This document shows, in pieces, positions 30,063 through 42,721 of a stretch of DNA of 64,000 nucleotides. Source of the stretch: a virus; IMG/VR virus record IMGVR_UViG_3300008459_000033, positions 5,169 to 69,168 of that record. One strand, 5' to 3'. Every line of letters begins with the position of its first letter. The first letter of the stretch is position 1. Below the pieces are notes generated by a model. That model had not been told where the DNA came from, made no database searches, and saw nothing but the letters and a program-made list of their open reading frames with translations. The position numbers were made by a program, and so were the translations under genes.

Positions 30063-30714
30063 AAAATTAATTTACACACCGATTGATATTCCTATAATCT
30101 TACCAGACGTGGAAGACATGAAGGATTTTCATTTTACCCACGGCGTTATAAACAAAGACTACGAAGATATTATACAAAATAGACACGACTATACTGTAGC
30201 GTGTAGTCGATATTCAGTAGAAGATTGGAGAATTTTACCTACTGCAAAGTATATGGACAAGGGAGATTGGAAGAAAACTGGTAATGAATATGAGTTAAAC
30301 TGGAATCCAGAGTTTGTAAAAAGATTTCCAACGCTAGTAGATGCTATTTTGGCAGCTCCATTTAAAGAAATCGCATTCGCAGGGTGGATGAGACAGATCA
30401 GTTCGTACCCTGCACACACTGATAGTCATGATCCAATGCAACCAATAGAGCCTAGACGATACAATATTCTATTAACAGAACCGGAACATAACACTTTTTG
30501 GTTAGAAGATGATGCTGGCCAAACACTTATTCCTGTTAGTCATAGAGACTATCCAATGTTTGCATTTAATAACGCTGATGTAAAACACGGAACTAACCCA
30601 ATTACTAAATTTAAACTAATGATGGGCATTGTTGGAATCATTGATCCTGACAAACATCTAGAATTAATCAATAGAAGCGTTAATAAATTTCCTAATAGTA
30701 CTATTTGGATTTAG
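30037..30714 (+). CDS. 2OG-Fe(II) oxygenase-like protein
   Basis: PAHTD..EPRRY..FNN..KHG; paralog of 7730. Confidence 0.7.
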   Translation: MPTYTQENKKLIYTPIDIPIILPDVEDMKDFHFTHGVINKDYEDIIQNRHDYTVACSRYSVEDWRILPTAKYMDKGDWKKTGNEYELNWNPEFVKRFPTLVDAILAAPFKEIAFAGWMRQISSYPAHTDSHDPMQPIEPRRYNILLTEPEHNTFWLEDDAGQTLIPVSHRDYPMFAFNNADVKHGTNPITKFKLMMGIVGIIDPDKHLELINRSVNKFPNSTIWI

Positions 30715-31678
30715 GAATCTTACTATCAGCTGAACTCACGCAGCTAGGCGTAATGCACTGCTGTGGTGTCTTAAACAAGTCAAAGCTTTCTAGAGTACCT
30801 AGTGCAGTATCGTGGCAACTGTAGCTACGTTTTACTTCATTACCCCTAATAATAACGCTTTGATAGCCTGCATTACAGATCCAATCTTTGAATTTGTTAA
30901 ATCCAAAGGCATTAAATCGTTCTGCTTGATCAAACAAGTATTCGATACCTGCTGCATCGTACAAGGCGATCTGATATAACTCTTCTCCGTTGGCACGTTG
31001 AGGAAATCCAGTCTGCATTTTGTTGATCATATCCTCGGTGTATCCGTCAACGATGCCGCTGGCAGTTGGATCGCTCATGGGTTTGAGTGTTACGTTGATT
31101 CCACGTTTGTGAAATCGCTCCATGCGAGCATATAGTTCGTCAAACTTTTCGGGCACCATTACTTGATTGATGGTAACGTGTACTAGTTCGTACATCAACT
31201 GTAAACACTTATCGCCAAACTCTTGTTCTTTAGCGAACTCATCATGGAAGCTGGCTGTTATACTTCTACGCTGTAACAACTCTGTGTTCTTACACCAAGT
31301 GTTCCACCACTTGCTTCCTGGACTTAGGTTAGTGGTCATGTGTATACTTTGGTATGAACTTTCTAAATCATCTTGTAGATGCTTGACAAGTTCATTCAAT
31401 TGCTTGTATGCTGTGGGCTCACCTCCGCTGAACGACCAATGGAACTGGTTAAACCCATTGACTCGTGCTTGACGTTTAATCTCGTCTACAGTAGATTTAT
31501 ATACTTCAAGCGGTTGGTGATCCGGAGTACTACTATTTGCGTAAGGCCAACAGTAGCTACACTTGTAATTACAAAACCTACCCAAGATCCAGCTAGTGGA
31601 GAACAACGTGTTAGCGAGCATTGTTCGTTGACCGAACTTTACTATTTGCTCAAAAGGTATTGTTTGAAATTGTGTCAT
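30701..31678 (-). CDS. Radical SAM protein
   Basis: CNYKCSYC, SGGEPT, TTN, CNAG...C...C.SSAD. Confidence 0.9.
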   Translation of the reverse strand: MTQFQTIPFEQIVKFGQRTMLANTLFSTSWILGRFCNYKCSYCWPYANSSTPDHQPLEVYKSTVDEIKRQARVNGFNQFHWSFSGGEPTAYKQLNELVKHLQDDLESSYQSIHMTTNLSPGSKWWNTWCKNTELLQRRSITASFHDEFAKEQEFGDKCLQLMYELVHVTINQVMVPEKFDELYARMERFHKRGINVTLKPMSDPTASGIVDGYTEDMINKMQTGFPQRANGEELYQIALYDAAGIEYLFDQAERFNAFGFNKFKDWICNAGYQSVIIRGNEVKRSYSCHDTALGTLESFDLFKTPQQCITPSCVSSADSKIPKSK

Positions 31679-31772
31679 GTATAAATAGTTGTGTGATATT
31701 TAGTGGCCAGCGGTAAGGCAACAAATATTTTCAAATGATTCAAAATTGCCACATATGAAGGTGGTATTTTTG

Positions 31773-31801
31773 TTGACAACTAAATAAACATACACTATAA
31801 T
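31773..31801 (+). promoter_or_regulatory. Sigma70 promoter (perfect consensus)
   Basis: TTGACA-17-TATAAT. Confidence 0.8.
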
Positions 31802-31843
31802 AATTGCATGTGTTAAATATTTTGCCAAAAGACTTAATAGTGG

Positions 31844-31872
31844 TTGACAAGATAGATAACAGGTGTTATAGT
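31844..31872 (+). promoter_or_regulatory. Sigma70 promoter
   Basis: TTGACA-17-TATAGT with extended TGn. Confidence 0.8.
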
Positions 31873-31918
31873 TAAGACATGCTGCAACAGTTGCAGCGTT
31901 TAAGGAAACGAAAACAAA

Positions 31919-32074
31919 ATGAACGCAATTTGTAATTTTAGACAATTTAAAACGATAGCCAAACAGGCTGTGCCGATGCACGGGTCTTGGTTAGCGATTA
32001 ATAGTCTATCATCAGATCGCACACCAGAGGGCTATAATAGCTCGGGGTTCTTAGAAGGGGCAGGTTACGCTTAA
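31919..32074 (+). CDS. Putative leader peptide (51 aa) of the RNA-array attenuator
   Basis: TAAGGA RBS; MNAICNFRQFKTIAKQAVPMHGSWLAINSLSSDRTPEGYNSSGFLEGAGYA; stop about 30 nt before the terminator. Confidence 0.6.
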   Translation: MNAICNFRQFKTIAKQAVPMHGSWLAINSLSSDRTPEGYNSSGFLEGAGYA

Positions 32075-32103
32075 ACAGCACCAAGTAACTTACAAACTTT
32101 AGG

Positions 32104-32140
32104 AACCCTAGGATTAAAAACCCTGGGGTTTTTTGTTTTT
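32104..32140 (+). terminator. Intrinsic terminator with a competing antiterminator
   Basis: AACCCTAGG/CCTGGGGTT stem plus T tract; 5' arm can instead pair with GGGGTTCTT (32044-32052). Confidence 0.75.
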
Positions 32141-32152
32141 ACAAAGGAAGAA

Positions 32153-32317
32153 ATGGAAAAGAAAGATTACGAAAAGTTAAATGAACGTATTGTCGAACAA
32201 GCTTATGAAGCAGTTCTTACAAAAGAGCAACTTCAAAAACTTATTCAAGATAAGTTTGATCGTGCTACAGTATATCACCGATCGCTGGCTAAACAGCCAA
32301 CGTTTAGTGTAAACTAA
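32153..32317 (+). CDS. Small hypothetical protein (54 aa)
   Basis: AAAGGA RBS; MEKKDYEKLNERIVEQAYEAVL... Confidence 0.6.
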   Translation: MEKKDYEKLNERIVEQAYEAVLTKEQLQKLIQDKFDRATVYHRSLAKQPTFSVN

Positions 32318-32324
32318 TAGTGCA

Positions 32325-32429
32325 AAGTGTGAATAACAGGAAACGAGGTCCTGGCAGCGCACTTAAAACATGCTGTAAACGGGCGGCCTGTAGGATGGAA
32401 CACTTCTTCTAGTGTGAAAAATTACAGCG
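32325..32429 (+). ncRNA. Structured RNA element(s), unknown
   Basis: AAGTGTG/CGCACTT and TGCTGTAA/TTACAGCG closing stems; no ORF. Confidence 0.4.
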
Positions 32430-32504
32430 TATTAAAGCATACTGAACAGACATATCCGCCGTAAGACGTGGAAGCATGGTGGTGATGACAGTATGCTTTA
32501 ATAC
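32429..32504 (+). repeat. Long-stem cassette E1
   Basis: Perfect 16-bp inverted repeat GTATTAAAGCATACTG/CAGTATGCTTTAATAC around 44 nt. Confidence 0.8.
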
Positions 32505-32567
32505 ACACTTTCCCATAGCGCCTTGAAAGCGCCGGAACCGACATAGTCTGGAGAGTGTTTAATTTTT

Positions 32568-32642
32568 GGGCTGATAGTGATAATGGGAGCACACTGGTTT
32601 TGCATATCGGTAGTTGGGGTTCGATCCCCCATCGGTCCACCA
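32568..32642 (+). tRNA. tRNA-Ala(TGC)
   Basis: Cloverleaf, encoded CCA. Confidence 0.85.
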
Positions 32643-32648
32643 AAATAT

Positions 32649-32723
32649 ATCCTGCTAGATTACTGGCTAGATCAATACCCTTTCAAGGTATAGGAACGGG
32701 ATCGATACCCGTGCAGGATGCCA
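32649..32723 (+). tRNA. tRNA-Glu(TTC)
   Basis: Cloverleaf, CCA. Confidence 0.85.
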
Positions 32724-32731
32724 AAGTTTAT

Positions 32732-32806
32732 ATACCGCTAGTGTTAACGGCAGCACGACAGTCTCCAAAACTGCTAGTGGGGGTTCAAATCCCTCGCGGT
32801 ATGCCA
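32732..32806 (+). tRNA. tRNA-Trp(CCA)
   Basis: Cloverleaf, CCA. Confidence 0.88.
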
Positions 32807-32813
32807 TTTTTAT

Positions 32814-32889
32814 CTCTCATTGGGCTAGCGGCTATGCCTCCTTGTTTGGAACGAGGAAATCGAAGGTTCGAGTCCTTCATGGGAGACCA
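32814..32889 (+). tRNA. tRNA-Pro(TGG)
   Basis: Cloverleaf, CCA. Confidence 0.85.
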
Positions 32890-32892
32890 AGT

Positions 32893-33116
32893 TTTGTAAG
32901 TGTCAGCAAGTGAAGTCACGCTAATAAGGTTTCTTCGAAGGACCGAGTTAGTAAAAGGTTAATGGGTTCAACTCCCACCCGCGGGGAACTGCGGAGGTCC
33001 GTAACGGGGACTATACTGGACGGATCCCAAGTGATATCCATCGCGTGTCGAGGTCAGGCTAGGCGGCCGGTAAGTCCTGAATAAATCTACGATAAATGTT
33101 GACGTAGGCTTACAAA
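32893..33116 (+). ncRNA. Unknown ~220-nt structured RNA (A)
   Basis: Ends pair (TTTGTAAGT-GTCAGCA with TGTTGAC..GCTTACAAA); internal T-loop GGGTTCAACTCCC; TTCG and GTAA hairpins. Confidence 0.6.
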
Positions 33117-33144
33117 TTCATTTTATGTTGTTTACCAAAATATG

Positions 33145-33209
33145 TTGACAGCAGCAAAAACGATGTTATAGTATACGCATGTTAAGCAATTAACATATGT
33201 TCATTAAAA
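33145..33209 (+). promoter_or_regulatory. Sigma70 promoter followed by a hairpin and boxA-like element
   Basis: TTGACA-16-TATAGT; GCAA-loop hairpin; TGTTCATTAAAA at 33198-33209. Confidence 0.6.
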
Positions 33210-33225
33210 ATTTAAGTATAAGAAG

Positions 33226-33338
33226 TTCTTATACACATACACACAACAGCGTAGGCCACGCTTATGTAGTGGATAACAGCCTTGTTTTGATGCATGGTTG
33301 GCAGGTTCGATTCCTGTAAGTGTGTAGTTGTATAAGAA
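33226..33338 (+). repeat. Long-stem cassette E2 enclosing a degenerate tRNA-like domain
   Basis: TTCTTATACA..TACACAC / GTGTGTA..TGTATAAGAA; internal T-arm GCAGGTTCGATTCCTGT. Confidence 0.65.
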
Positions 33339-33342
33339 TTAA

Positions 33343-34225
33343 GGGGAGTTTAATCTCCAGGACAGTATGGTTCGCCCAGCTGGACAAAAGATAAGCTAGG
33401 TGACTAGCCCAAAGCAGACGAGTCCTACACTCCTGCGCCAGCAATGGTCTGTTTAAGCAAGCCTGCTCACTACCGCGAGGTAGCGTTCACTGATAAGACC
33501 GGTGGATGTAACAGCAAAGCTGATGTATGGGGAAGAACATTGTTCGACGTGCCGCAAGGAACACGGGGCAATGAAAAGTAACAGGTGGTGCTGACTTCCA
33601 TACGAAACCAATCAGTTAGTTGGTATGAGAAAGGGTAGTGTATTGGTTCGAAGGGTCGCACCTAAGAGCTCGTATGCAATGTCAATGGTTAGTGGGCTGT
33701 AGTAATACAGTACACCGATCGTGAAACATCACTGAGTAGCTCGCGAGGCAAAAGGTATGTGGTGAGTTGTATTGGGTAGTTCAAAAGATTATTCAGCAAC
33801 TGAGTCAGCTCATCGCGGTAGGTTGTTATAGGCTAATGGTAGGCCATTTCTCTGTTAAAGAAACGACTGTGGGTTCGATCCCCACTAACATTTAAAATGC
33901 AAAGACTGACTCGGTCGTGTGTGAAAAGCATCTAATACTTGGGGCGCAAGCTAACCAAGTCAGACGTAACTCGCAAGGTGAAATCTGTTTATGCAGGAAG
34001 TTTCGTAACTGTTTAGCGACAGTGAATGGCTCTAAAGGTCAACGGAGTAGAAAGCGTAGAATAGCACACGATGTCAAGACTAATGCCTGTCTTTAAACGG
34101 CGATGCTGCAAGTAGACGTGGATACCTAGCAATAGGGCTGCGTGGAAGTCGGAAGAAAGAGTGCTCGCAAGGTGCTCAATAATGTCCGAGGTACTTGTAG
34201 GTTAGGATGTATTCTCAGTCCGCCA
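33343..34225 (+). ncRNA. Large (~880 nt) ornate ncRNA, probably GOLLD
   Basis: No sense ORF; GC-richer than flanks; many GNRA-capped hairpins; lies in a phage tRNA array; internal tRNA-like domain; boundaries approximate. Confidence 0.7.
33822..33893 (+). tRNA. tRNA-Asn(GTT)-like domain inside the large ncRNA, no CCA
   Basis: D arm, TTTCT-CTGTTAA-AGAAA anticodon arm, GTGGG-TTCGATC-CCCAC T arm; weak acceptor stem. Confidence 0.6.
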
Positions 34226-34226
34226 C

Positions 34227-34316
34227 TTATATAAAAGCACATTGACGTGTGACTGCGTCATTGGTAACAGTGAGAGGCCTACTAAAGCTGTAGGACATTA
34301 GTGTGTTTCTATATAA
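34227..34316 (+). repeat. Long-stem cassette E3
   Basis: TTATATAAAAGCACATTGA / TTAGTGTGTTTCTATATAA. Confidence 0.75.
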
Positions 34317-34318
34317 AT

Positions 34319-34404
34319 GGAGTTGTAGGAAAATTGGTAACCCCAGTGGACTGTAAATCCGCCGCCCTTGTGCATTGTTGGTTCAAGTCCAACCGGCTCC
34401 ACCA
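34319..34404 (+). tRNA. tRNA-Tyr(GTA)
   Basis: Cloverleaf with variable arm, CCA. Confidence 0.9.
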
Positions 34405-34418
34405 TAGTTTTTTAACTT

Positions 34419-34493
34419 GCTCGGTTCGTCTATCGGTCAGGACACCCGCCTTTCACGCAGGTAAGAGGGGTTCGATTCCCCTACCGAGTACCA
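34419..34493 (+). tRNA. tRNA-Glu(TTC)
   Basis: Cloverleaf, CCA. Confidence 0.9.
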
Positions 34494-34500
34494 ACGTAAC

Positions 34501-34577
34501 GCACAGGTACCAGAGCGACTAATGGCGCGGATTGCAAATCCGTTGATTCGTGGGTTTGAGTCCCACCCTGTGCTCCA
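34501..34577 (+). tRNA. tRNA-Cys(GCA)
   Basis: Cloverleaf, CCA. Confidence 0.85.
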
Positions 34578-34585
34578 GGAATATT

Positions 34586-35047
34586 ATGAGACAACAATTT
34601 TATCAGTCGTTAAAGATCGGTGAAGCTTGGGAAACTACCATGGAACAGTGGATGGCAAAATATTTTGCCAAGACTAAGTGGGTAGTTGAAGATGCACGAC
34701 ATGTTCATAGAGACGAGGACGGAGATCAATTCCCGGACTATGTTTTAGTGAACACTGAAACCGATAAGTTTTGTTTTATCGATGCAAAGAAACGCAATGC
34801 CTATGCCTGGAATGAACAAAGGTATTTCGGCTTTGATGAAAGATTTTTTAATAGCTATACCAACATAGCTAAGAAACACAACACAAAAGTATATGTAGGG
34901 TTTAATGATCCTGCGTTTGATCCCAATCACGTTTATATTCTAGACGTAAGTCAACCGCACGATTGGAAACCTTATTTTAGCAACGTGCATGGCTCTAGTC
35001 ATGCTTATCGTTGGAAAGTCGAACACCTAGTTCGTCTTGAAATGTAA
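34586..35047 (+). CDS. PD-(D/E)XK nuclease-like protein inside the tRNA array
   Basis: GEAWE...PDYVL...FIDAKKR; AGGA RBS. Confidence 0.65.
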   Translation: MRQQFYQSLKIGEAWETTMEQWMAKYFAKTKWVVEDARHVHRDEDGDQFPDYVLVNTETDKFCFIDAKKRNAYAWNEQRYFGFDERFFNSYTNIAKKHNTKVYVGFNDPAFDPNHVYILDVSQPHDWKPYFSNVHGSSHAYRWKVEHLVRLEM

Positions 35048-35050
35048 TAT

Positions 35051-35138
35051 GGAAGTTTGGTCGAGTGGTCTATGGCTCTAGTCTTGAAAACTAGCGAATC
35101 GAAAGGTTCCGTGAGTTCGAATCTCACAGCTTCCGCCA
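35051..35138 (+). tRNA. tRNA-Ser(TGA)
   Basis: Type II cloverleaf, CCA. Confidence 0.92.
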
Positions 35139-35142
35139 TATT

Positions 35143-35218
35143 GCTTCGTTAGCTCAATTGGGAGAGCGCGACACTGTCACTGTCGAGGTAAGGGGATCGA
35201 AACCCCTACGAGGCGCCA
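35143..35218 (+). tRNA. tRNA-Asp(GTC)
   Basis: Cloverleaf, CCA. Confidence 0.9.
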
Positions 35219-35221
35219 AGA

Positions 35222-35421
35222 ACGTTCTAGCTAATCACTAGATATTGTGACCCGCAAGATGAGAAGTGCTGTGATAAGCACGGGTGGTAGTCTTTAAACC
35301 GAAAGGCCGCTGGCAATGCGAGAACGGAACCTGTCGTGGAGAGGGTGGAGGCCGTATGTGATGGTATTGGGGGTTCCCGGTGCCTGATGCGGTATAATTA
35401 CCTCCGGGGTTCGCAGAGCAT
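35222..35421 (+). ncRNA. Unknown ~200-nt structured RNA (B)
   Basis: TTGTGACCC/GGGTTCGCAG closing stem, GGAGG/CCTCC, GAAA hairpin; no ORF; between tRNAs. Confidence 0.6.
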
Positions 35422-35476
35422 TTTTTAATTTTAAAAGGAGATCTGTCATGAATAGTGACAAGAGTGATAAGATGTC

Positions 35477-35551
35477 GGGGGTATAACTTAACGGCTAAAG
35501 TAGCGGGCTTTTAACCCGCAAATCAGAGTTCGATTCTCTGTGCCCCTACCA
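35477..35551 (+). tRNA. tRNA-Lys(TTT)
   Basis: Cloverleaf, CCA. Confidence 0.9.
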
Positions 35552-35640
35552 TATGTAAACACATTCAAAAATCTAAACATAGTTTAGCTAACGGTTAGCT
35601 CGCCGGACATCGAAGAGCACGAGTGTGTTTTCATATGGTA
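35547..35640 (+). repeat. Long-stem cassette E4
   Basis: TACCATATGTAAACACATTC / GAGTGTGTTTTCATATGGTA. Confidence 0.75.
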
Positions 35641-35711
35641 ACGTAGCATAATGGTCGTGCACCTCCTTCATACGGAGCAAGGTATTGGTTCGAATCCAAT
35701 CGTTACCACCA
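35637..35711 (+). tRNA. tRNA-Met or Ile2 (CAT)
   Basis: Cloverleaf, CAT anticodon, CCA. Confidence 0.8.
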
Positions 35712-35721
35712 ATCATTTAAT

Positions 35722-35796
35722 ACCTGTGTAGCTCAGTGGTAGAGCACCGTCTTGATAAGGCGGGTGTCGGTGGATCGTTCCCACCCACAGGTACCA
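35722..35796 (+). tRNA. tRNA-Ile(GAT)
   Basis: Cloverleaf, CCA. Confidence 0.88.
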
Positions 35797-35807
35797 GGTT
35801 ATTCTGT

Positions 35808-35881
35808 TGGACTATGGTGTAATGGTAACACAACTGACTTTGACTCAGTCGTTCCAGGTTCGAGCCCTGGTAGTCCTGCCA
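35808..35881 (+). tRNA. tRNA-Gln(TTG)
   Basis: Cloverleaf, CCA. Confidence 0.9.
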
Positions 35882-35887
35882 AGTTTT

Positions 35888-35962
35888 GCCCCGTTCGTAT
35901 AATGGATCATATACAAAGCTACGAACTTTGAGATGGTGGTTCGATTCCATCACGGGGCTCCA
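35888..35962 (+). tRNA. tRNA-Arg(ACG)
   Basis: Cloverleaf, CCA. Confidence 0.85.
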
Positions 35963-35964
35963 GT

Positions 35965-36038
35965 GTTGTTCCTAGTGTAGTGGCTGCACACCTGTCTGTG
36001 AAACAGGTAGAGAGGGTTCGATTCCCCGGTTCAACCCA
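35965..36038 (+). tRNA. tRNA-His(GTG), mismatched acceptor stem
   Basis: CCTGT-CTGTGAA-ACAGG arm, T arm, CCA; two T:T mismatches in the acceptor stem. Confidence 0.7.
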
Positions 36039-36042
36039 AGAT

Positions 36043-36133
36043 TATATTCAAGCACACTTCGGTCTAGGCATAGCCTAGGCATAAGGCAAGAAGACCTCTG
36101 TGATTAGAAACATTCCAAGTGTGCTTGAATATA
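36043..36133 (+). repeat. Long-stem cassette E5
   Basis: Perfect 17-bp inverted repeat TATATTCAAGCACACTT/AAGTGTGCTTGAATATA. Confidence 0.8.
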
Positions 36134-36135
36134 TT

Positions 36136-36211
36136 GCCGATGTAGCTCAGGTGGTAGAGCAGCGGATTGAAAATCCGTGTGTCACTGGTTCAACCCCAGT
36201 CTTCGGCACCA
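36136..36211 (+). tRNA. tRNA-Phe(GAA)
   Basis: Cloverleaf, CCA. Confidence 0.9.
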
Positions 36212-36229
36212 AATTTAAAGGAGCTCAAT

Positions 36230-36415
36230 ATGAAAGCCATTACGTTCAAGAACAAATTAAATAGCGAACAGGTAATATGTGAAAACATACGTGCCGTTGA
36301 AGTGATAGATGGCATTGAGTATCTAGTTGTCCATCGAAAAGAAAACAACAGAATGTTTTTAATGCGAAAAGATGTCTTAGAAAAAATCAACACAACCGTT
36401 GACAAAGCTAAGTAA
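36230..36415 (+). CDS. Small hypothetical protein
   Basis: AAGGAG RBS, MKAITFKNK... Confidence 0.7.
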   Translation: MKAITFKNKLNSEQVICENIRAVEVIDGIEYLVVHRKENNRMFLMRKDVLEKINTTVDKAK

Positions 36416-36427
36416 ACACACTATAAT
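36399..36427 (+). promoter_or_regulatory. Sigma70 promoter (perfect consensus)
   Basis: TTGACA-17-TATAAT just before tRNA-Leu. Confidence 0.8.
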
Positions 36428-36440
36428 AGATTTAAGAAAT

Positions 36441-36524
36441 GCGCAAGTGGTGGAATGGTATACACGGTGGTCTTAGAAGCCACTGCCGAGAGGATTGAGA
36501 GTTCGAGTCTCTCCTTGCGCACCA
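36441..36524 (+). tRNA. tRNA-Leu(TAG)
   Basis: Type II cloverleaf, CCA. Confidence 0.92.
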
Positions 36525-36535
36525 AAGGATATAGA

Positions 36536-36748
36536 ATGGAAGATATTAATATTTACGAGTTCGGCGAGTCGATGAAATACTTTGAAGAAAAGTTAGAAGG
36601 TATCGACTTTGTCATTGAACAGGTAGAAGGTCCAACTGAAGAAGAAGATTTGTGGTGTTTGGAAATTTTTGATCAAAAGATCCATTTTCAAACATTGGAT
36701 GAAGTAAAGAAACATTTGCACAGTATTATCGATAGTCGAATACCGTGA
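36536..36748 (+). CDS. Small acidic hypothetical protein
   Basis: AAGGA RBS, MEDINIYEF... Confidence 0.65.
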   Translation: MEDINIYEFGESMKYFEEKLEGIDFVIEQVEGPTEEEDLWCLEIFDQKIHFQTLDEVKKHLHSIIDSRIP

Positions 36749-36757
36749 TATAAAGTT

Positions 36758-36832
36758 GCCTGGTTAGCTCAGGGGTAGAGCGTCTCCTTTACACGGAGAG
36801 GGTCCGCGGTTCGAAACCGTGACCAGGTACCA
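36758..36832 (+). tRNA. tRNA-Val(TAC)
   Basis: Cloverleaf, CCA. Confidence 0.92.
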
Positions 36833-36840
36833 AAGTTTTT

Positions 36841-36932
36841 ACCTCCATAGTTTAATGGTAAAACGGCGGATTTATATCCCGTAAGCAACAGATAATTGGT
36901 TCATGTGGGTTCGACTCCCGCTGGAGGTACCA
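36841..36932 (+). tRNA. tRNA-Ile(TAT) with long variable arm
   Basis: Anticodon loop TTTATAT, ~22-nt variable region, CCA. Confidence 0.7.
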
Positions 36933-36942
36933 ATAAGTTTTT

Positions 36943-37032
36943 GGAGCGTGGGCCGGATGGTAAGGCAGCGGTTTGCTAAACCGTAGAACAGGTAAAATGG
37001 TTCACAGGGTTCGACTCCCTGACGCTCCGCCA
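36943..37032 (+). tRNA. tRNA-Ser(GCT)
   Basis: Type II cloverleaf, CCA. Confidence 0.9.
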
Positions 37033-37053
37033 AGTTAATTGAAAAGGAAATAT

Positions 37054-37257
37054 ATGTTAAAACCAGGTAAGACATTTAATTTAAGCAAGCAAACAAAGCG
37101 TTTCATGGCAACATTTGTCAACGCTGAAGATCGAAATCATTTTAAGCGTATGATGATTCAAGCAGAATTAGCAGCAGCTATTGTACCGAAGCGTGAAAAA
37201 CGTCCACAGGGCAATGCAGGTTATACACAGACTGCTACTTCGGCAACTGCGGATTAA
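37054..37257 (+). CDS. Small basic hypothetical protein
   Basis: AAAGGA RBS, MLKPGKTFNLSK... Confidence 0.7.
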   Translation: MLKPGKTFNLSKQTKRFMATFVNAEDRNHFKRMMIQAELAAAIVPKREKRPQGNAGYTQTATSATAD

Positions 37258-37259
37258 TA

Positions 37260-37538
37260 ATGAGTGGAAAGTGGCATGGGGGCAAAGGCAGTGCGCAACG
37301 CAAGGCATTAGTTCCACAGTCTCAAGTTGATAGTAATTGGGATACAATTTTTAAAAAGAAGGACCAAGGCATGCAAATAAGAGTCAAAGAAGATCCGGAA
37401 GAATTTGGTAAGTGTGGTTGTGGTCGTAGTCCAACTGGTAAGTGTATTGGTTGGCACGTTCTAAGTGAAGAAATGTATCAGCATCAAAAAATGCTTTGGT
37501 TAGAAGATGAACTTCGTAAAGACAACGAAGTTAAGTAA
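37260..37538 (+). CDS. Small protein with CDGSH-like metal-binding motif
   Basis: CGCGRSPTGKCIGWH. Confidence 0.6.
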   Translation: MSGKWHGGKGSAQRKALVPQSQVDSNWDTIFKKKDQGMQIRVKEDPEEFGKCGCGRSPTGKCIGWHVLSEEMYQHQKMLWLEDELRKDNEVK

Positions 37539-37544
37539 TAACGT

Positions 37545-37620
37545 GGGGGTGTAGCTCATTTGGGAGAGCGCCTGCTTTGCAAGCAGGATGTAGCAAGTTC
37601 GATCCTTGTCACCTCCACCA
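37545..37620 (+). tRNA. tRNA-Ala(TGC)
   Basis: Cloverleaf, G3:U70, CCA. Confidence 0.92.
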
Positions 37621-37638
37621 AGTTTTTAAGTAAGTATT

Positions 37639-37712
37639 GCCCTATTAGTTTAATGGTAAAACAACGGTTTTGTAATCCGTGGCTGGGAGTTCGATTCTCT
37701 CATGGGGCACCA
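37639..37712 (+). tRNA. tRNA-Thr(TGT)
   Basis: Cloverleaf, CCA. Confidence 0.88.
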
Positions 37713-37718
37713 AAATAT

Positions 37719-37794
37719 TCCGCAGTAGCTCAGTCGGTAGAGTAGATGACTGTTAATCATTTGGTCGGTGGTTCGAGCCCACCCTGTGGAGCCA
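37719..37794 (+). tRNA. tRNA-Asn(GTT)
   Basis: Cloverleaf, CCA. Confidence 0.92.
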
Positions 37795-37810
37795 ATAATA
37801 TTAAAAAGAC

Positions 37811-37838
37811 TTGACATTAAGTTTTTTTCGTATATAAT
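37811..37838 (+). promoter_or_regulatory. Sigma70 promoter
   Basis: TTGACA-16-TATAAT. Confidence 0.7.
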
Positions 37839-37845
37839 AAGTTTT

Positions 37846-38089
37846 GTTGTGTAGCAATACACAACCGGCGATGTAAAAGGTAGATGAGAGTAGACGATTG
37901 TTATCGCTACATGCGATGACAAAACTTAATGGCTGGACTAATCCTCCAACCTCGTAAGTTAGTGCTCCGGGTATAAACATAGAAAATCTGTTCTTTGCTA
38001 TCCGGTAATATTAACTTCTCTGCTCGTTGAATTTTGTACATTGTGCTTTGCACTTTGTTCGGTCTATTACTTGACCTTTTACAGGACCG
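37846..38089 (+). ncRNA. Unknown ~240-nt structured RNA or leader (C) upstream of rpoZ
   Basis: 5' GCAA hairpin; TGTAAAAGGT/ACCTTTTACA long-range stem; internal TTGTTATCGC/GCGATGACAA hairpin. Confidence 0.55.
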
Positions 38090-38112
38090 TTTTTAACTAA
38101 CTAAGGTACTCA

Positions 38113-38361
38113 ATGGCTCGATACACATCAGAAAAAGCAGCACAAATGTTTGGCAATAATCGTTTTAACCTAGTGTTAGGCGCAAGTCAACGTGCAAGAG
38201 AACTTAAGAATGGTTCTATGCAACGTGTAGAGGGCAAAGATGCAACTACCGTAGTCACCGCACTTCGTGAAATTGAAGAAGGCAAGTATACAGTAAAAGA
38301 ATGGCTAGATAAAATCCCAAAGAAAAGGAAAGGCAATCGTGATGAATATAACCCTACGTAA
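38113..38361 (+). CDS. rpoZ: RNA polymerase omega subunit
   Basis: MAR.T......GNNRFNLVL.ASQRAREL...TVVTALREIEEG matches RpoZ motifs. Confidence 0.88.
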   Translation: MARYTSEKAAQMFGNNRFNLVLGASQRARELKNGSMQRVEGKDATTVVTALREIEEGKYTVKEWLDKIPKKRKGNRDEYNPT

Positions 38362-38914
38362 GGCAAATGTAGTTCAGAACTCTGTTAACGATGCAATCAA
38401 AGCGATTGACATCAGTGTTAATGTTGAGATCAGCGAATTCCAAGATATTGATGCAGTGATTGCATCAGCACAAAAGAAATTAGCAGACAACGATCACCGT
38501 CGTGATCGCTTGCTGGTTACCTTGTATAACATTCGTGGCCTAGTTGGTCAAGCGAATGCTGAAAGTGGCATCGACCTAGCATTGGCTCGTGCAGCATACA
38601 TTGACAAGCGACTTGGTCAATTGGCTGAACTTGCAAGTGCAGCCGTTATCACTGACATGTCTGTGATCAAAGGCAAGATTGACAAGATCAAGAACAGCAA
38701 AGACGAAGGTCGTCGTAGCCTGTATGGTTATAGCGATGGAGTGACAACTTCGGTGTTGACACAAGAAAAGATTGACCAGATTAAGAACGAAGTAAAAGTT
38801 CTTAAGAAACAGAAGCAAAAGCTCAACGATGAAATCCTTGAGTTGAATATCAAAACAGATATTCCACTTAGCGATGATGCAGTGGCAATTTTGCAGGCTG
38901 AAGGTCTAATCTAA
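38342..38914 (+). CDS. Coiled-coil hypothetical protein
   Basis: 190-aa ORF overlapping the rpoZ end. Confidence 0.75.
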   Translation: MNITLRKANVVQNSVNDAIKAIDISVNVEISEFQDIDAVIASAQKKLADNDHRRDRLLVTLYNIRGLVGQANAESGIDLALARAAYIDKRLGQLAELASAAVITDMSVIKGKIDKIKNSKDEGRRSLYGYSDGVTTSVLTQEKIDQIKNEVKVLKKQKQKLNDEILELNIKTDIPLSDDAVAILQAEGLI

Positions 38915-38919
38915 CAGAC

Positions 38920-39116
38920 CCCGGTTTACGCTTTTACGTTAGAAAAGTGCGTGATTGCTGATACGAGAGAGGCACGGTGCATTGGATCTACCGCAAGGTT
39001 CTCTTTAGGAACGACTTGAGAAATCACAAAGGTAGGGACGCTATCCTGTCTAAATAGAAAAGAACGTGGACAGAGTAACCGCTCAGTCCGGGGCTCATGT
39101 GGTGTGAGTAGCCGGA
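38920..39116 (+). ncRNA. Unknown ~200-nt structured RNA (D)
   Basis: CCGGTTTAC/GTAGCCGG closing stem; GCAA hairpin; no ORF. Confidence 0.55.
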
Positions 39117-39117
39117 C

Positions 39118-39202
39118 ACTTTATTAAAATATTTTAGTCACAGCTGAGAATTATAGACTTCAGATTGCATAGCAATGTGTCATTAAAGTATTTTAATAAA
39201 GT
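39118..39202 (+). repeat. Long-stem cassette E6
   Basis: ACTTTATTAAAATATTTTAGT / ATTAAAGTATTTTAATAAAGT. Confidence 0.7.
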
Positions 39203-39205
39203 TAT

Positions 39206-39279
39206 CGCGGGATAGAGAAAGGGCATCTCAGAAGTCTCATAAGCTTCAGTTCTTGGTTCGAATCCAGGTCCCGCAACCA
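39206..39279 (+). tRNA. tRNA-Met(CAT), initiator-like
   Basis: CGCGGG 5' end with C1:A72 mismatch, CAT, CCA; lacks the three G-C anticodon-stem pairs. Confidence 0.8.
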
Positions 39280-39286
39280 AATTCAA

Positions 39287-39535
39287 ATGATAGATTACCT
39301 AACAACATTTTTTGCTATATTTTTACTTGATATTGTTTATACATATTATCTAAGATGTGTGGCAAATGACAATGTATTAGGAGCAAGCTTTTGGTCTGTG
39401 GCTTGTTATGTTTTAGGAAGTGTAGCAGTTATAAATTACACGTCTAATCATTGGTTAATGATTCCAGCAATGGCAGGTGCGTTTTGTGGCACCTATGTTG
39501 GCATGAAGATTAGAAAAAAACAATTCGGAGTGTAG
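39287..39535 (+). CDS. Small membrane protein
   Basis: 82 aa, three hydrophobic segments. Confidence 0.7.
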   Translation: MIDYLTTFFAIFLLDIVYTYYLRCVANDNVLGASFWSVACYVLGSVAVINYTSNHWLMIPAMAGAFCGTYVGMKIRKKQFGV

Positions 39536-39546
39536 CGCCGAGTCTG

Positions 39547-40077
39547 TTAAAATTTTTCCGGGTGTAGCTTAGTCTGGCTTAAAGCGCCTGCTTTGGGAGC
39601 AGGAGATCGTGAGTTCGAATCCCACTTCCCGGACCAATCTAACTTATTACCTTTTTGTCTATTTTGACTCATAGGTAAGTATTGAAGATTATCTTGATGA
39701 TGTAGTCCACCTTTACTAACGGGTATGATGTGATCTACTTCAAACCCTATAGGACATTCTTCATAGATTTTTTGTATTAGTTTTAAATCTGCATCAGGTG
39801 GTGTTTGAGCTTTTTGTTTAGCGTGGTATCTTTGCCAGGCTTCATTAGCAATAGCTCGTTTATGTTTATAGTGAGCTTCATCCTTTTCGACTCGGCTCGC
39901 TAATTGAGCACATTTATGTGAACAATATTGATTAGTGGATGTGTGCCTAAATATTTTTTCGGCACCACAATGCTTACAGTTAAAAATTCGCTTAGGTTTA
40001 CCGCAATACTTTGTATGCATCGTTAAACCTTGCGTGTTTTTAAACTCTGATTTACAGTTGGGACATTCGTGTTTCAT
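39547..40077 (-). CDS. HNH endonuclease with N-terminal zinc fingers
   Basis: CPNC..H..C, CKHC...CSHKC, EVDHIIPVSKGGLH..NLQ.L...N..KGNK; C-terminus runs antisense through tRNA-Pro. Confidence 0.88.
   Translation of the reverse strand: MKHECPNCKSEFKNTQGLTMHTKYCGKPKRIFNCKHCGAEKIFRHTSTNQYCSHKCAQLASRVEKDEAHYKHKRAIANEAWQRYHAKQKAQTPPDADLKLIQKIYEECPIGFEVDHIIPVSKGGLHHQDNLQYLPMSQNRQKGNKLDWSGKWDSNSRSPAPKAGALSQTKLHPEKF
39558..39636 (+). tRNA. tRNA-Pro(TGG)
   Basis: Cloverleaf, CCA. Confidence 0.88.
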
Positions 40078-40208
40078 ATAAGTATTTATCAGTCTGGTAG
40101 CGCAGAATAGAAACATAGGCGTACAAGGTTCGAATCCTTGTACTCCGACCAAAAACTCTCCCTGACATGCGGAGTATAATGTGATAAGTAGTATGTCAAA
40201 AATTTAAT

Positions 40209-40284
40209 GCGGGCGTAGCTCAGTTGGTAGAGCATTACCTTGCCAAGGTAAATGTCGTCGGTTCGAACCCGATCGCCCGCTCCA
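40209..40284 (+). tRNA. tRNA-Gly(GCC)
   Basis: Cloverleaf, CCA. Confidence 0.93.
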
Positions 40285-40294
40285 AAGGACAATT

Positions 40295-40690
40295 ATGTTA
40301 GAATGTTTGATTCTAGGTGACAGTATTGCAGTTGGTACAGCTAATATTCGTACTGAGTGTGTTTCATATTCACATGGTGGATGGAACTCGTGGCAGTGGA
40401 ATAAGAAGTATAAAGACACTCCCGTTGCAGCAAAGACAGTAATTATCAGTTTAGGCAGCAATGATCATAAAGGTGTTAGAACTCTTTGGGAGTTACAACA
40501 ACTGCGTGATAGAACAAAAGCAGATAGAGTCTATTGGATCCTTCCTGCAATTAAACCAGACATCCAAGAGATGGTCAAATTAGTTGCCAAGGATCATAAC
40601 GATGTCGTGTTACCTATTACACGATTACAAAAAGATGGAGTTCATCCTTCCTGGGCAGGTTATAAAGAGCTTGCAGATAAATCAAGGTGA
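40295..40690 (+). CDS. Small SGNH/GDSL hydrolase
   Basis: LGDSIAVG, SLGSND, DGVHP. Confidence 0.8.
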   Translation: MLECLILGDSIAVGTANIRTECVSYSHGGWNSWQWNKKYKDTPVAAKTVIISLGSNDHKGVRTLWELQQLRDRTKADRVYWILPAIKPDIQEMVKLVAKDHNDVVLPITRLQKDGVHPSWAGYKELADKSR

Positions 40691-40716
40691 TGCTATAATA
40701 AGTTTATAGTTAGTAT

Positions 40717-40790
40717 GCGGGGTTAGTTTAATGGCAAAACAGCAGATTTCCAATCTTCGGTCGAGAGTTCGATTCTCTCACTCCGCTCCA
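40717..40790 (+). tRNA. tRNA-Gly(TCC)
   Basis: Cloverleaf, CCA. Confidence 0.88.
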
Positions 40791-40797
40791 AATATAT

Positions 40798-40872
40798 CTG
40801 GCGTTCGTTCAATGGATAGGACATGATTCTTCTAAAGTCATTATGGAGGTTCGATTCCTCCACGCCGGGCCA
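40798..40872 (+). tRNA. tRNA-Arg(TCT)
   Basis: Cloverleaf, CCA. Confidence 0.88.
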
Positions 40873-40890
40873 ATAACAATAAGGTAGATA

Positions 40891-41076
40891 ATGGGTAAGA
40901 AAGAAGAACAAGAAGCAACCGATGCCGCTGTTGCAGAATTTTTAGCAGGCGGTGGAATCATTCAACAAATTCCAATGGGTAAGAGTGGTCGCGTCGAGGG
41001 AGAAAGTTATAACCCTTGGGGCAAGAAGAAAACCACAGCACCTAGCCCACTAGCAGAACTTCCAGAAGAAGATTAA
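40891..41076 (+). CDS. Small hypothetical protein
   Basis: TAAGG RBS; AVAEFLAGGG.I..IP.G motif. Confidence 0.7.
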   Translation: MGKKEEQEATDAAVAEFLAGGGIIQQIPMGKSGRVEGESYNPWGKKKTTAPSPLAELPEED

Positions 41077-41151
41077 GCTCTTATAGTATAATGGCTATTA
41101 TGCTGTCTTGGTATGACAGAGATCGTAGTTCAATTCTACGTTAGAGCACCA
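41077..41151 (+). tRNA. tRNA-Thr(GGT)
   Basis: Cloverleaf, CCA. Confidence 0.85.
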
Positions 41152-41156
41152 AGTAT

Positions 41157-41240
41157 GCGAGTGTGGTGGAATGGTATACACAGCAGACTTAAAATCTGCC
41201 GCTTAATTGATTGAGGGTTCAAGTCCCTCCACTCGTACCA
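41157..41240 (+). tRNA. tRNA-Leu(TAA)
   Basis: Type II cloverleaf, CCA. Confidence 0.92.
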
Positions 41241-41248
41241 CGAACAAA

Positions 41249-41329
41249 GCCCCGGTAGACAAATTGGCAAAGTCGTCTCTCTCAAAAAGAGAAATTTAAA
41301 TGCGGGTTCAACTCCCGCCCGGGGTACCA
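41249..41329 (+). tRNA. tRNA-Leu(CAA), short variable arm
   Basis: Cloverleaf, CCA. Confidence 0.8.
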
Positions 41330-41358
41330 TTGACAAACACAGTGTTTGATCGTATCAT
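41330..41358 (+). promoter_or_regulatory. Sigma70 promoter
   Basis: TTGACA-17-TATCAT. Confidence 0.6.
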
Positions 41359-41364
41359 AATAGA

Positions 41365-41598
41365 ATGTATAAAGTAATAAGCAAATCGGGACTCCCACTT
41401 AACTCATGTCCTACACTAAACGAAGCTATGGCATTTGCCAAAACTGTAGGTATGTTTGTAACTATCAGCGGCCCGGATTTTGAAGTGTGCGGTATATTTG
41501 GAGTTGATAGTGTTGAAGATGGTCTATGTCCAGATGGTGTAGCTTACACATGGAACAAAGCTAGCCGTATAGGACGAATTAAAAAAGAGAGAGTATAA
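41365..41598 (+). CDS. Hypothetical protein
   Basis: 77-aa ORF coupled to the next gene. Confidence 0.7.
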   Translation: MYKVISKSGLPLNSCPTLNEAMAFAKTVGMFVTISGPDFEVCGIFGVDSVEDGLCPDGVAYTWNKASRIGRIKKERV

Positions 41599-42092
41599 TG
41601 CCCTGGATTGAAAATGTATCATTAGGAGATATTCCCAAAGGTCGACATCACAACGCCGGAGAGAACTCTATGCTGATTCAAATTGTTGATCCGGACATGG
41701 AGTTTCCTGTGCCAATGCACAAGTTTAAATCTACTCATCAGTTTAAGTTTCTTGATTTAGAAAAAACCGATGACACAATAAATGACCAATGGAAAATTCA
41801 AGACGAACAAGCTGAAGAATTAGTTCGCTTGTTGCAACACGCTCTAGAACATCGCATGAACGTTGTTGTGCATTGTGTAGCAGGTGTATGCCGTAGTGGG
41901 GCTGTATGTGAAGTAGGAACCATATTAGGCTTTGACGATACTGAAGTATTTCGTAGCCCCAATCTTCTTGTCAAACACAAGATGATGAAAGTGCTAGGAA
42001 TGACCTACGATGAAAGCGAACCACACACAATTAATGGTGTAACTACTGATTGGGGATTTGTTATTCCAAAGAATCGCGAAGGCGATATCTAA
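41598..42092 (+). CDS. Cys-based (PTP/dual-specificity-like) phosphatase
   Basis: VHCVAGVCRS (HCX5R). Confidence 0.82.
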   Translation: MPWIENVSLGDIPKGRHHNAGENSMLIQIVDPDMEFPVPMHKFKSTHQFKFLDLEKTDDTINDQWKIQDEQAEELVRLLQHALEHRMNVVVHCVAGVCRSGAVCEVGTILGFDDTEVFRSPNLLVKHKMMKVLGMTYDESEPHTINGVTTDWGFVIPKNREGDI

Positions 42093-42115
42093 CCGTAGTA
42101 ATTCTACAACAAAAG

Positions 42116-42141
42116 AAAGCCCTGTTACTATGCAGGGCTTT
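42116..42141. terminator. Hairpin, possible terminator
   Basis: AAAGCCCTG/CAGGGCTTT. Confidence 0.5.
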
Positions 42142-42175
42142 CGCACGATGTTATAATGTATATAGAGGAAATAAA

Positions 42176-42721
42176 ATGAAAACATGGATCACTAGCGATT
42201 TACATTTCGGTCACAAGAACATAATGAAGTTTTGCCCGATCACGCGAGCAAGATTCCGCGACGATGTTAGCTACATGAACGAAGCCATGATTAAGGAATG
42301 GAACGATTTAATCGAGCCAGAAGACACTGTTTACATCTTAGGTGATGTAGCATTTATGTCAGGCAGCGATGCTGGAAGAACTGTGAATCGTTTAAACGGC
42401 TCAAAGATCTTAGTTGAAGGAAATCACGATCGTAAAACGTTACAGGATGCCACATTCCGTAATGCGTTTAAAGAAGTACACAAGTATTTGGATGTTACCT
42501 ATGACGGTCATAAGATTGTTATGTTTCACTATCCAATCAGCGAGTGGGATCAAATGCACAGAGGTTCCTTACATTTCTTTGGTCACGTACATGGTGGCGA
42601 CAGCGGTATGGAAAAATATCGTTGTAGAGATGTAGGTATGGATGCCACAGGCATGATAGCTGTGTCAATGGAATGGGCAATTGCCAATGTTAAGAACAAT
42701 GAAATAAAAGGACATCACTAA
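42176..42721 (+). CDS. Calcineurin-like metallophosphoesterase
   Basis: SDLHFGH, LGD, GNHD, HYP, GHVH. Confidence 0.9.
   Translation: MKTWITSDLHFGHKNIMKFCPITRARFRDDVSYMNEAMIKEWNDLIEPEDTVYILGDVAFMSGSDAGRTVNRLNGSKILVEGNHDRKTLQDATFRNAFKEVHKYLDVTYDGHKIVMFHYPISEWDQMHRGSLHFFGHVHGGDSGMEKYRCRDVGMDATGMIAVSMEWAIANVKNNEIKGHH

Follow-up and report, generated by a model that had tools for sequence, protein, structure and literature searches.

We describe a 51-codon open reading frame (ORF) and an intrinsic terminator that stand at the head of a long tRNA gene array in a 64,000-nucleotide (nt) stretch of viral DNA (IMG/VR record IMGVR_UViG_3300008459_000033, positions 5,169 to 69,168), hereafter called the window. 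The combined evidence suggests, with a probability that we put at roughly 0.7, that this leader is a ribosome-mediated transcription attenuator that samples all 20 amino acids ahead of the stable-RNA and tRNA genes. The original prediction, drawn from the letters of the window, had proposed that such a leader senses the supply of nearly every amino acid and that its translation governs which of two structures forms, a terminator or an antiterminator. Conservation of the ORF, the composition of its peptide, the placement of the antiterminator arm, covariation of the RNA helices, and linkage to tRNA arrays now lend sequence-based support to that core idea. The parts of the leader region, in window coordinates, are listed below.

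31773 to 31801, + strand: promoter P1, sigma70 consensus TTGACA-17-TATAAT (12/12 matches)
31844 to 31872, + strand: promoter P2, TTGACA-17-TATAGT with an extended -10 TG (11/12 matches)
31881 to 31897, + strand: 5'-proximal hairpin of the P2 transcript (minimum free energy [MFE] fold)
31902 to 31918, + strand: translation initiation region, purine rich and A rich, AAGGA followed by 12 nt to the ATG (sequence)
31919 to 32074, + strand: leader ORF, 51 codons plus TAA, 20 amino acid types, 39 distinct codons (ORF list, codon count)
31987 to 32027, + strand: conserved intra-ORF hairpin R2:R3, containing codons for W-L-A-I and D-R-T-P (RNAalifold)
32044 to 32055, + strand: antiterminator 5' arm, R4, codons 42 to 46 (folding, covariation)
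32060 to 32093, + strand: small hairpin inside the antiterminator, with the stop codon (32072 to 32074) in its loop (forced fold)
32098 to 32109, + strand: antiterminator 3' arm, R5, of which 32103 to 32109 doubles as the terminator 5' arm (folding, covariation)
32103 to 32140, + strand: intrinsic terminator, stem 32103 to 32112 with 32122 to 32131, 9-nt loop, U-tract to 32140 (MFE and forced folds)
32153 to 32317, + strand: 54-amino-acid ORF, 3' of the terminator and 5' of the first RNA gene (ORF list; present in a subset of relatives)
32324 to 32560, + strand: conserved structured RNA "X," the first product 3' of the terminator (motif order, covariation)
32568 to 41329, + strand: 33 tRNA genes in an array that covers all 20 amino acids and also holds other RNAs, GOLLD among them (ARAGORN, Rfam)

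The two sigma70 promoters, the ribosome binding site with its 51-codon ORF, the terminator before the first RNA genes, and the array covering 20 amino acids had all been named in the original prediction and proved to be present, as did array-internal promoters at 33145, 36399, and 37811; a further promoter lies at 41330. The terminator was recovered both as the 3' hairpin of the MFE fold and in the forced fold, with stem limits that vary by fold (32103/05 to 32112 with 32122 to 32129/31). A simple terminator scan skipped this hairpin because the scan accepted loops of up to 8 nt, whereas the loop here has 9 nt.

In the mechanism that we propose, host RNA polymerase would initiate at the two near-consensus promoters and transcribe the 51-codon ORF, in which a ribosome would meet every amino acid at least once within the first 37 to 40 codons, 5' of R4. 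When no ribosome occupies the distal ORF, either because it has stalled at any hungry codon or because it is absent, R4 would pair with R5 and capture the CCC core needed by the terminator, and transcription would continue into RNA X and the tRNA genes. When decoding is smooth, a ribosome would be sitting on R4 or on the enclosed stop codon loop by the time the polymerase transcribes the terminator 3' arm; with a ribosome on the distal ORF, the terminator would form and transcription would end. In an infected cell, aminoacyl-tRNA supply would thereby come under negative feedback. We infer that the ORF is translated, that the switch runs in this direction, and that it responds to tRNA supply. 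We also give somewhat better than even odds to the idea that the leader acts as a closed-loop governor of decoding capacity, in which any shortage of charged tRNA would open transcription of the array and restored decoding would close it. The shortage could arise from host shut-off, starvation, or an anticodon nuclease defense.

A conserved leader in uncultured freshwater phages

A recount reproduced the hand counts on which the original prediction was based: the window peptide contains 20 amino acid types, is written with 39 distinct codons, including 4/4 Ala codons and 5/6 Ser codons, and is without runs of a single residue. As had been proposed, the codon count was compared with that of background 51-codon windows, of which 13,450 were drawn from 61 long ORFs within the 64-kb window. 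These contain 29.8 distinct codons on average (standard deviation [SD], 2.8), and the leader exceeds every one of them (maximum, 38); the possibility, raised at the outset, that its codon diversity would fall within the background range was not borne out. The 271-nt leader RNA also folds more stably than 200/200 shuffled sequences (z = -3.73). All 20 amino acids are found in 6.5% of background 51-residue windows, so that one all-20 peptide proves little, and the significance of the observation derives from comparison with relatives.

A cultured relative of the leader was not found among GenBank phages: a blastn search with positions 31500 to 33000 matched only tRNA genes of T5-like phages, and tblastn searches with the 51- and 54-amino-acid ORFs gave nothing better than E = 2. 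A back-translated peptide search of IMG/VR recovered 8 loci with an identical layout and 7 to 24 tRNA genes downstream. A pattern built on two conserved ORF blocks gave 35 stretches, 19 of them with the element, and a second ORF-block pattern gave 106 stretches from JGI/ENA metagenomes. The first set obtained by these ORF-based searches comprises 116 complete copies, which reduce to 77 different sequences at the DNA level and 69 different peptides. Since searches of this type fix portions of the ORF, an independent sample was chosen by the terminator alone. The query, consisting of the terminator loop and 3' arm, returned 104 stretches, in which 94 loci have at least 300 nt of upstream sequence. 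At 90/94 of these loci, an ORF of 42 to 55 codons ends 32 to 43 nt 5' of the terminator motif; two further loci carry homologous ORFs of 35 and 36 codons, and two identical loci (L249 and L270) carry a different, 30-codon ORF.

The source record of the window is 69,168 bases long, with a CheckV completeness of 19%. Because the relatives lie on records that span 326 to 357 kb (uncultured freshwater phages of about 350 kb), the window virus is taken to be a jumbo phage, known solely through freshwater metagenomes. The terminator motif is present in a single copy per genome in 4/4 jumbo-phage records, three of which are 94 to 100% complete. From these records, the element appears to be a conserved single-copy family of uncultured freshwater phages of about 350 kb. 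With at least 146 distinct sequences over freshwater metagenomes, the family is a rich natural mutagenesis data set. Collecting homologous leaders before tRNA arrays had been suggested as a check, and in those collected here the ORF is kept and the antiterminator covaries.

An ATG-to-stop frame of 41 to 55 codons is retained in 146/146 distinct sequences, with a TAA stop codon in 142 and TAG in 4; frames +1 and +2 contain 3.3 and 5.0 stops on average. Lengths of the ORF differ by whole codons, with the ATG placed 66, 69, or 72 nt 5' of a conserved TGG. A failure of the ORF to be conserved, which would have spoken against the original prediction, did not occur. The initiation-region block AGAGAAAACAAAATG is conserved in an alignment of relatives (A1), as is a peptide core, W-L-A-I-N-S-L ... 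D-R-T-P-E, although conservation over the 142 peptides is limited to 6 alignment columns. The leader thus has one trait expected of an attenuator, a short ORF with start signals right behind a promoter, conserved as an ORF. Taken together, these patterns argue that the leader ORF is under selection. Databases hold 41 relatives of the ORF; the named ones are annotated as "hypothetical protein," with one FlgF, and many are nameless. No Pfam family matches the leader peptide, and Rfam covariance models run over positions 31000 to 42500 (E ≤ 1) identified only tRNAs, GOLLD, and weak chance matches on tRNAs.

Amino acid completeness across the family

In the combined set of 142 distinct peptides (41 to 55 amino acids), 116 contain 20 amino acid types and the rest contain 19. 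Twenty types are present in 51/69 peptides of the first set (19 types in 18/69) and in 65/73 of the terminator-only set (19 types in 8/73); by eye, the homologous 35-amino-acid relative has all 20 types and the 36-amino-acid relative has 19. For comparison, 1.5 to 7.7% of background windows of 41 to 53 amino acids contain all 20. Shared ancestry was accounted for by a null in which the tree pattern of every alignment column is kept and the amino acid labels are swapped. This tree-preserving relabeling gave a mean of 25.6 all-20 peptides (SD, 14.7; maximum, 87) versus the 116 observed, and 0/1500 relabelings reached 116 even with the family's own variable-column frequencies. For the first set, the observed count was reached in 1/2000 relabelings with family frequencies and in 0/2000 with proteome frequencies. 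When the peptides were grouped into 21 clusters below 50% identity, 15 representatives had 20 types and 6 had 19.

The behavior of the rare residues is telling. His occurs 1.08 times per peptide on average (variance, 0.12), spread across 19 alignment columns, and Cys occurs 1.06 times (variance, 0.24), spread across 25 columns. A Poisson distribution with those means predicts that about one-third of the peptides would be without His and about one-third without Cys, whereas the observed fractions are 1.4% and 8.5%. These results argue that the all-20 composition is maintained by selection while individual residues shift position. The original prediction spoke of a codon-sampling leader. Its amino acid level stands, in that composition is kept; at the codon (isoacceptor) level, sampling is only modestly supported, with an average of 36.3 distinct codons across the family versus 32.9 expected (mean z, 1.68), and RNA structure constraints or weak codon bias could explain the excess.

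Because a ribosome stalled at any sampling codon must leave R4 free, an attenuator of the proposed kind needs its sampling codons 5' of R4. The codon that adds the last new amino acid type lies 5' of R4 in 96% of 149 sequences, at a median distance of 11 nt. The same placement is seen in 18/21 cluster representatives, versus 6.2 expected from within-peptide shuffles (R4 was located in divergent members through the MAFFT column), and the tail of about 8 codons after the antiterminator arm contributes almost nothing new to the amino acid set. Within the N-terminal part, which reaches from Met1 to the D-R-T-P-E block and averages 37.7 amino acids, 72 of 138 peptides already have 20 types, 56 have 19, and 10 have 18; among background 38-residue windows, 0.8% have 20.

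Mutually exclusive terminator and antiterminator helices

The alternative pairing named in the original prediction, together with its inner GGTTAC hairpin, was recovered in both MFE and forced folds. Positions 32044 to 32055 pair with 32098 to 32109, enclosing a GGTTAC/GTAAC hairpin with the stop codon in its loop. The terminator and the antiterminator share 32103 to 32109, including the CCC core, and the two helices therefore exclude each other. In this respect, too, the region is laid out like an attenuator, with a terminator between the leader and the genes and an exclusive antiterminator whose 5' arm lies inside the ORF.

Pairing was evaluated on 154 distinct sequences, in an alignment that ignored structure. 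Here 98.6% pairing is found for the terminator and 96% (sum of per-pair counts) for the 7-bp antiterminator core (32044 to 32050 with 32103 to 32109); on alignment A1, the core is 97.1% paired, and slid partners give no more than 48%. Changes on both sides are found at 5/7 core pairs. Among the 154 sequences, the first pair, for example, is GC in 62, AU in 62, and GU in 22 sequences, and the sixth is CG in 62 and UA in 31. The covariation score of the entire structure was reached by 0/500 shuffles.

In free RNA of the window, the antiterminator conformer has a predicted energy of -32.3 kcal/mol and the terminator conformer -29.5 kcal/mol, and the antiterminator is predicted to form in the nascent RNA before the terminator 3' arm is made. 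Across 146 sequences folded in silico, the terminator is part of the MFE structure of free RNA in 21/146, in 128/146 when a ribosome footprint is masked at the stop codon, and in 146/146 when the mask is placed 7 codons earlier. The models thus predict that read-through is the default and that a ribosome in the distal ORF causes termination.

Upstream of R4, the R2:R3 hairpin (31987 to 31998 with 32016 to 32027) is 92.9% paired over the 154 sequences, versus at most 42% when slid, and helix B (31956 to 31962 with 31987 to 31993), which competes with it, is 83% paired. By analogy to the 1:2 hairpin of trp, R2:R3 may be an RNA polymerase pause or timing hairpin. Relatives have hairpins at the position of the 31881 to 31897 hairpin, but with a different sequence (by eye). 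Other candidate features were considered and set aside. Helix D (31939 to 31943 with 32004 to 32008) is only 63% paired and is not claimed; hairpin C, at an internal ATG, shifts register between clades, and its column counts do not fit (by eye). A TnaC-like nascent-peptide arrest was rejected as a defining feature, the W-to-P spacing being 12 residues in the window and 11 to 14 in relatives (by eye). As for a tmRNA, a T-box, or a known riboswitch, ARAGORN reported no tmRNA and Rfam gave no match on the leader.

Linkage to tRNA arrays

At all 81 loci with at least 1,500 nt of downstream sequence, the leader is followed by at least three tRNA genes on its own strand, with a median of 14 within 4 kb, and by no tRNA gene on the opposite strand. 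A strong promoter-like site, defined as at least 10/12 sigma70 consensus matches, lies within 220 nt 5' of the ATG in 139/140 loci, and 125/140 have at least two. Between the terminator and the first tRNA, 63/87 loci have no promoter-like site; in the window, the first such site on the + strand after the leader terminator is the one at 33145.

RNA X, the first product beyond the terminator, shows its two motifs in order in 91/111 loci, with or without a small ORF before it. Changes on both sides are seen at 12/16 of its predicted pairs, and it has no match in Rfam. In the window, this small ORF (32153 to 32317) starts behind a separate AAGGAAG region; it is confined to a subset of relatives and belongs to no Pfam family.

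Weighing the attenuator against other explanations

Several observations weigh against the attenuator reading. With a footprint masked at the stop codon, 18/146 sequences still fold no terminator, and a ribosome on the window stop codon would not cover R4, which lies 22 to 28 nt 5' of the stop; in our models, termination with a ribosome at that position would depend on sterics or timing. The R2 and R3 blocks are conserved at the nucleotide level and pair with each other, a sign of an RNA-level function that the attenuator model does not require. One amino acid is missing from 26/142 peptides, mostly Cys or Val in the first set, and the excess of distinct codons across the family is modest. Metatranscriptomes add little to the argument. 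Parts of the stretch occur in 20 runs from 19 studies; the four examined were all assembled contigs. Exact-match pieces of RNA-library contigs cover 31811 to 32030 and 31858 to 32043, and in contigs of relatives 32141 is joined to 32377, bridging the site of the window's extra ORF. Contigs of relatives also cross the terminator into the downstream RNA. All that such assembled contigs establish is that RNA libraries contain the leader sequence; they say nothing about regulation, transcript levels, read-through, or the position of 3' ends, and no meaning attaches to parts that they leave uncovered.

The extent of control over the tRNA genes is a related concern. The original prediction held that only the first block of the array need be controlled, and the data fit this view. 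At the same time, the window array has internal promoters, and in 24/87 relatives a promoter-like site intervenes 3' of the terminator, before the first tRNA. The attenuator may therefore mainly gate RNA X, adding to tRNA transcription rather than controlling it. Finally, one distinct relative (L249 = L270) has a 30-amino-acid leader with 13 amino acid types. This variant keeps a GGGGTT/AACCCC antiterminator and the same terminator, and it has two new consensus-like promoters after the terminator and before the tRNAs. Although it represents one distinct sequence, the exception is instructive in that the shortened leader coincides with new post-terminator promoters.

A first rival reading makes the same attenuator a general sensor of translation competence, or feedback governor. 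Any slowing of the ribosome would then be the trigger, be it caused by starvation, by host shut-off, by toxins that target ribosomes, or by a shortage of phage tRNA, and host anticodon nucleases would have no special role. The modeled design would indeed report the arrival of a ribosome and not the cause of its delay, and the upstream ORF (uORF) of mycobacterial whiB7 is described as responding to many translation stresses (PMC10274678). Each codon of the window leader can be read by a phage-encoded tRNA (standard wobble rules, applied by hand), which fits feedback on the phage's own tRNA output. We nonetheless consider this reading unlikely; an Rnl1-family RNA ligase gene (PF09511) and an HD-domain gene after the array hint that the phage expects tRNA damage. 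More doubtful still is a structured RNA, small or with a dual function, whose 3' end is set by its own terminator, with the helices carrying the function and the ORF tolerated or secondary. The strong fold (z = -3.73), the pairing, nucleotide-conserved R2/R3 blocks, and the several intra-ORF hairpins would suit such an RNA. Retention of frame, start, and stop in every distinct sequence while the other frames are closed would not, nor would the lack of an Rfam match, and a structured RNA cannot explain an all-20 composition with wandering residues.

It seems very improbable that the leader simply encodes a small phage protein, expressed from a promoter and terminator of its own, and has nothing to do with how the array is controlled. 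Gene callers do list it as a hypothetical protein, with the 41 database relatives mentioned above, and the W-L-A-I-N-S-L ... D-R-T-P-E core is what a protein gene might keep. Against this stand the absence of a Pfam family, a composition that stays complete with only 6 conserved columns over 142 peptides, and the position of the element, always directly 5' of tRNA arrays; moreover, the sole genome with new post-terminator promoters has its ORF cut to 30 amino acids and 13 types. Neither a plain protein nor a noncoding RNA with an accidental ORF explains an antiterminator that overlaps the terminator and covaries. Proximity alone brings in a last candidate, a precursor of a ribosomally synthesized and posttranslationally modified peptide (RiPP): a radical SAM enzyme gene (30701 to 31678, - strand; PF04055, E = 1.3e-12) adjoins the leader on the opposite strand. 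A relative of this enzyme lies within 4 kb upstream in only 3/105 leader loci, and the leader region is matched in 0 of the best 80 of 592 loci with enzyme relatives, where only the enzyme gene aligns. This lack of synteny rules out the RiPP precursor for practical purposes, and we give it next to no weight. Relatives of the enzyme number at least 592 in viral contigs, the best 80 of which share 79 to 87% protein identity in unrelated neighborhoods, and the gene appears to be a widely shuffled auxiliary gene.

Other genes and RNAs in and around the array

The array contains further RNAs. A GOLLD RNA (RF02032) at 33759 to 34221 scores 201.7 bits against a gathering threshold of 150 over the full model length, with a tRNA-Asn gene (33821 to 33894) nested in it. 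The segment at 32893 to 33116, after tRNA-Pro, has no Rfam match; the summed depth of metatranscriptome contigs reaches about 25,000 at 32932 to 33000, compared to single or double digits nearby, so that this RNA is either very abundant or very widely shared. ARAGORN reports a tRNA-like gene with a 4-base anticodon (ttga) at 33257 to 33325 and a 92-nt tRNA-Ile(tat) at 36841 to 36932, which exceeds class I length and may hold an insert.

Right after the array, positions 41598 to 44505 encode a DSP/PTP-like phosphatase (weak matches, mostly below Pfam cutoffs), an HD_4 domain protein (E = 1.2e-13), and an RNA ligase of the T4 Rnl1 family (PF09511, E = 2.3e-13). T4 Rnl1 mends tRNA cleaved by an anticodon nuclease, and judging from these domains the three genes look like an RNA repair set.

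Comparison with known systems

Phage tRNA genes are usually viewed as aids to codon usage or as substitutes for tRNAs that the host or the phage has destroyed. If the attenuator described here operates as proposed, it would be the first to conserve completeness of the amino acid set as a trait, and also the first case in which a leader peptide is described as controlling tRNA genes. The virus would gauge global decoding capacity by means of one 50-codon test message and tune its tRNA output to match. The principle of attenuation would be widened from one to three amino acids to all 20, its target would move from biosynthetic enzymes to tRNAs, and reporters of translation stress could be built on the leader, a compact natural element that would sense how much of any aminoacyl-tRNA is available. 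A search of the literature, confined to main texts, turned up no description of phage tRNA genes preceded by a leader-peptide attenuator.

The enterobacterial leaders (trpL, hisL, leuL, and pheL and the multivalent thrL and ilvGMEDA) regulate biosynthetic enzymes through tandem runs of codons that specify one, two, or three amino acids. The phage leader resembles them in its promoter-proximal short ORF, its mutually exclusive terminator and antiterminator, a predicted choice by ribosome position, and a possible pause hairpin. It differs in having no codon runs, about one codon per rare amino acid, and RNA genes downstream; the phage stop codon falls within the loop that the antiterminator closes, whereas the enterobacterial stop lies just 5' of the antiterminator 5' arm. 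Tandem regulatory codons are a trait of classical attenuators, and with 20 types in 51 codons and no runs, the phage element is set apart as a variant of the leader-peptide attenuators.

A long tRNA array is also known from Anabaena sp. PCC 7120, where the trn operon is stress induced and its control, in the parts of the published reports relevant here, is ascribed to a protein repressor, TrcR (PMC8421152, PMC10272220). Both are accessory tRNA arrays switched on, in the phage case by our proposal, when translation is impaired; the means differ, a protein repressor there and a leader attenuator proposed here. A word search of PMC8421152 found none of "attenuat," "leader," or "terminator."

The closest published case, by analogy, is the uORF attenuator of mycobacterial whiB7. 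In mycobacteria and other actinobacteria, according to the sections of the report that deal with the whiB7/wblC uORF, stalling in this 5'-leader uORF favors an antiterminator over a terminator; the amino acids sensed are those encoded in the uORF, and one Trp codon suffices (PMC10274678). The same sections describe the uORF of Mycobacterium smegmatis as encoding 19/20 amino acids and report that loss of the start codon raises basal read-through (PMC10274678). Uniting the two is a uORF of mixed composition, that of the phage being the more complete, and if the analogy holds, the phage leader would be a sensor as well; increased read-through upon start codon loss in whiB7 matches the default-on logic that our models predict for the phage leader. 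The likeness is one of such described features. Differences are also apparent. whiB7 controls a bacterial WhiB-family transcription factor, whereas the phage leader precedes RNA X and tRNA genes. The whiB7 uORF is described as alanine enriched (PMC10274678), and this enrichment is not found in the phage leaders, where Ala occurs 3.39 times per peptide compared to 6.25 for Ser and 4.35 for Gly (first set, 69 peptides). In the same account, uORF content varies among species, and that of Mycobacterium tuberculosis is without several amino acids (PMC10274678); the phage family, in contrast, conserves completeness itself across its 142 peptides.

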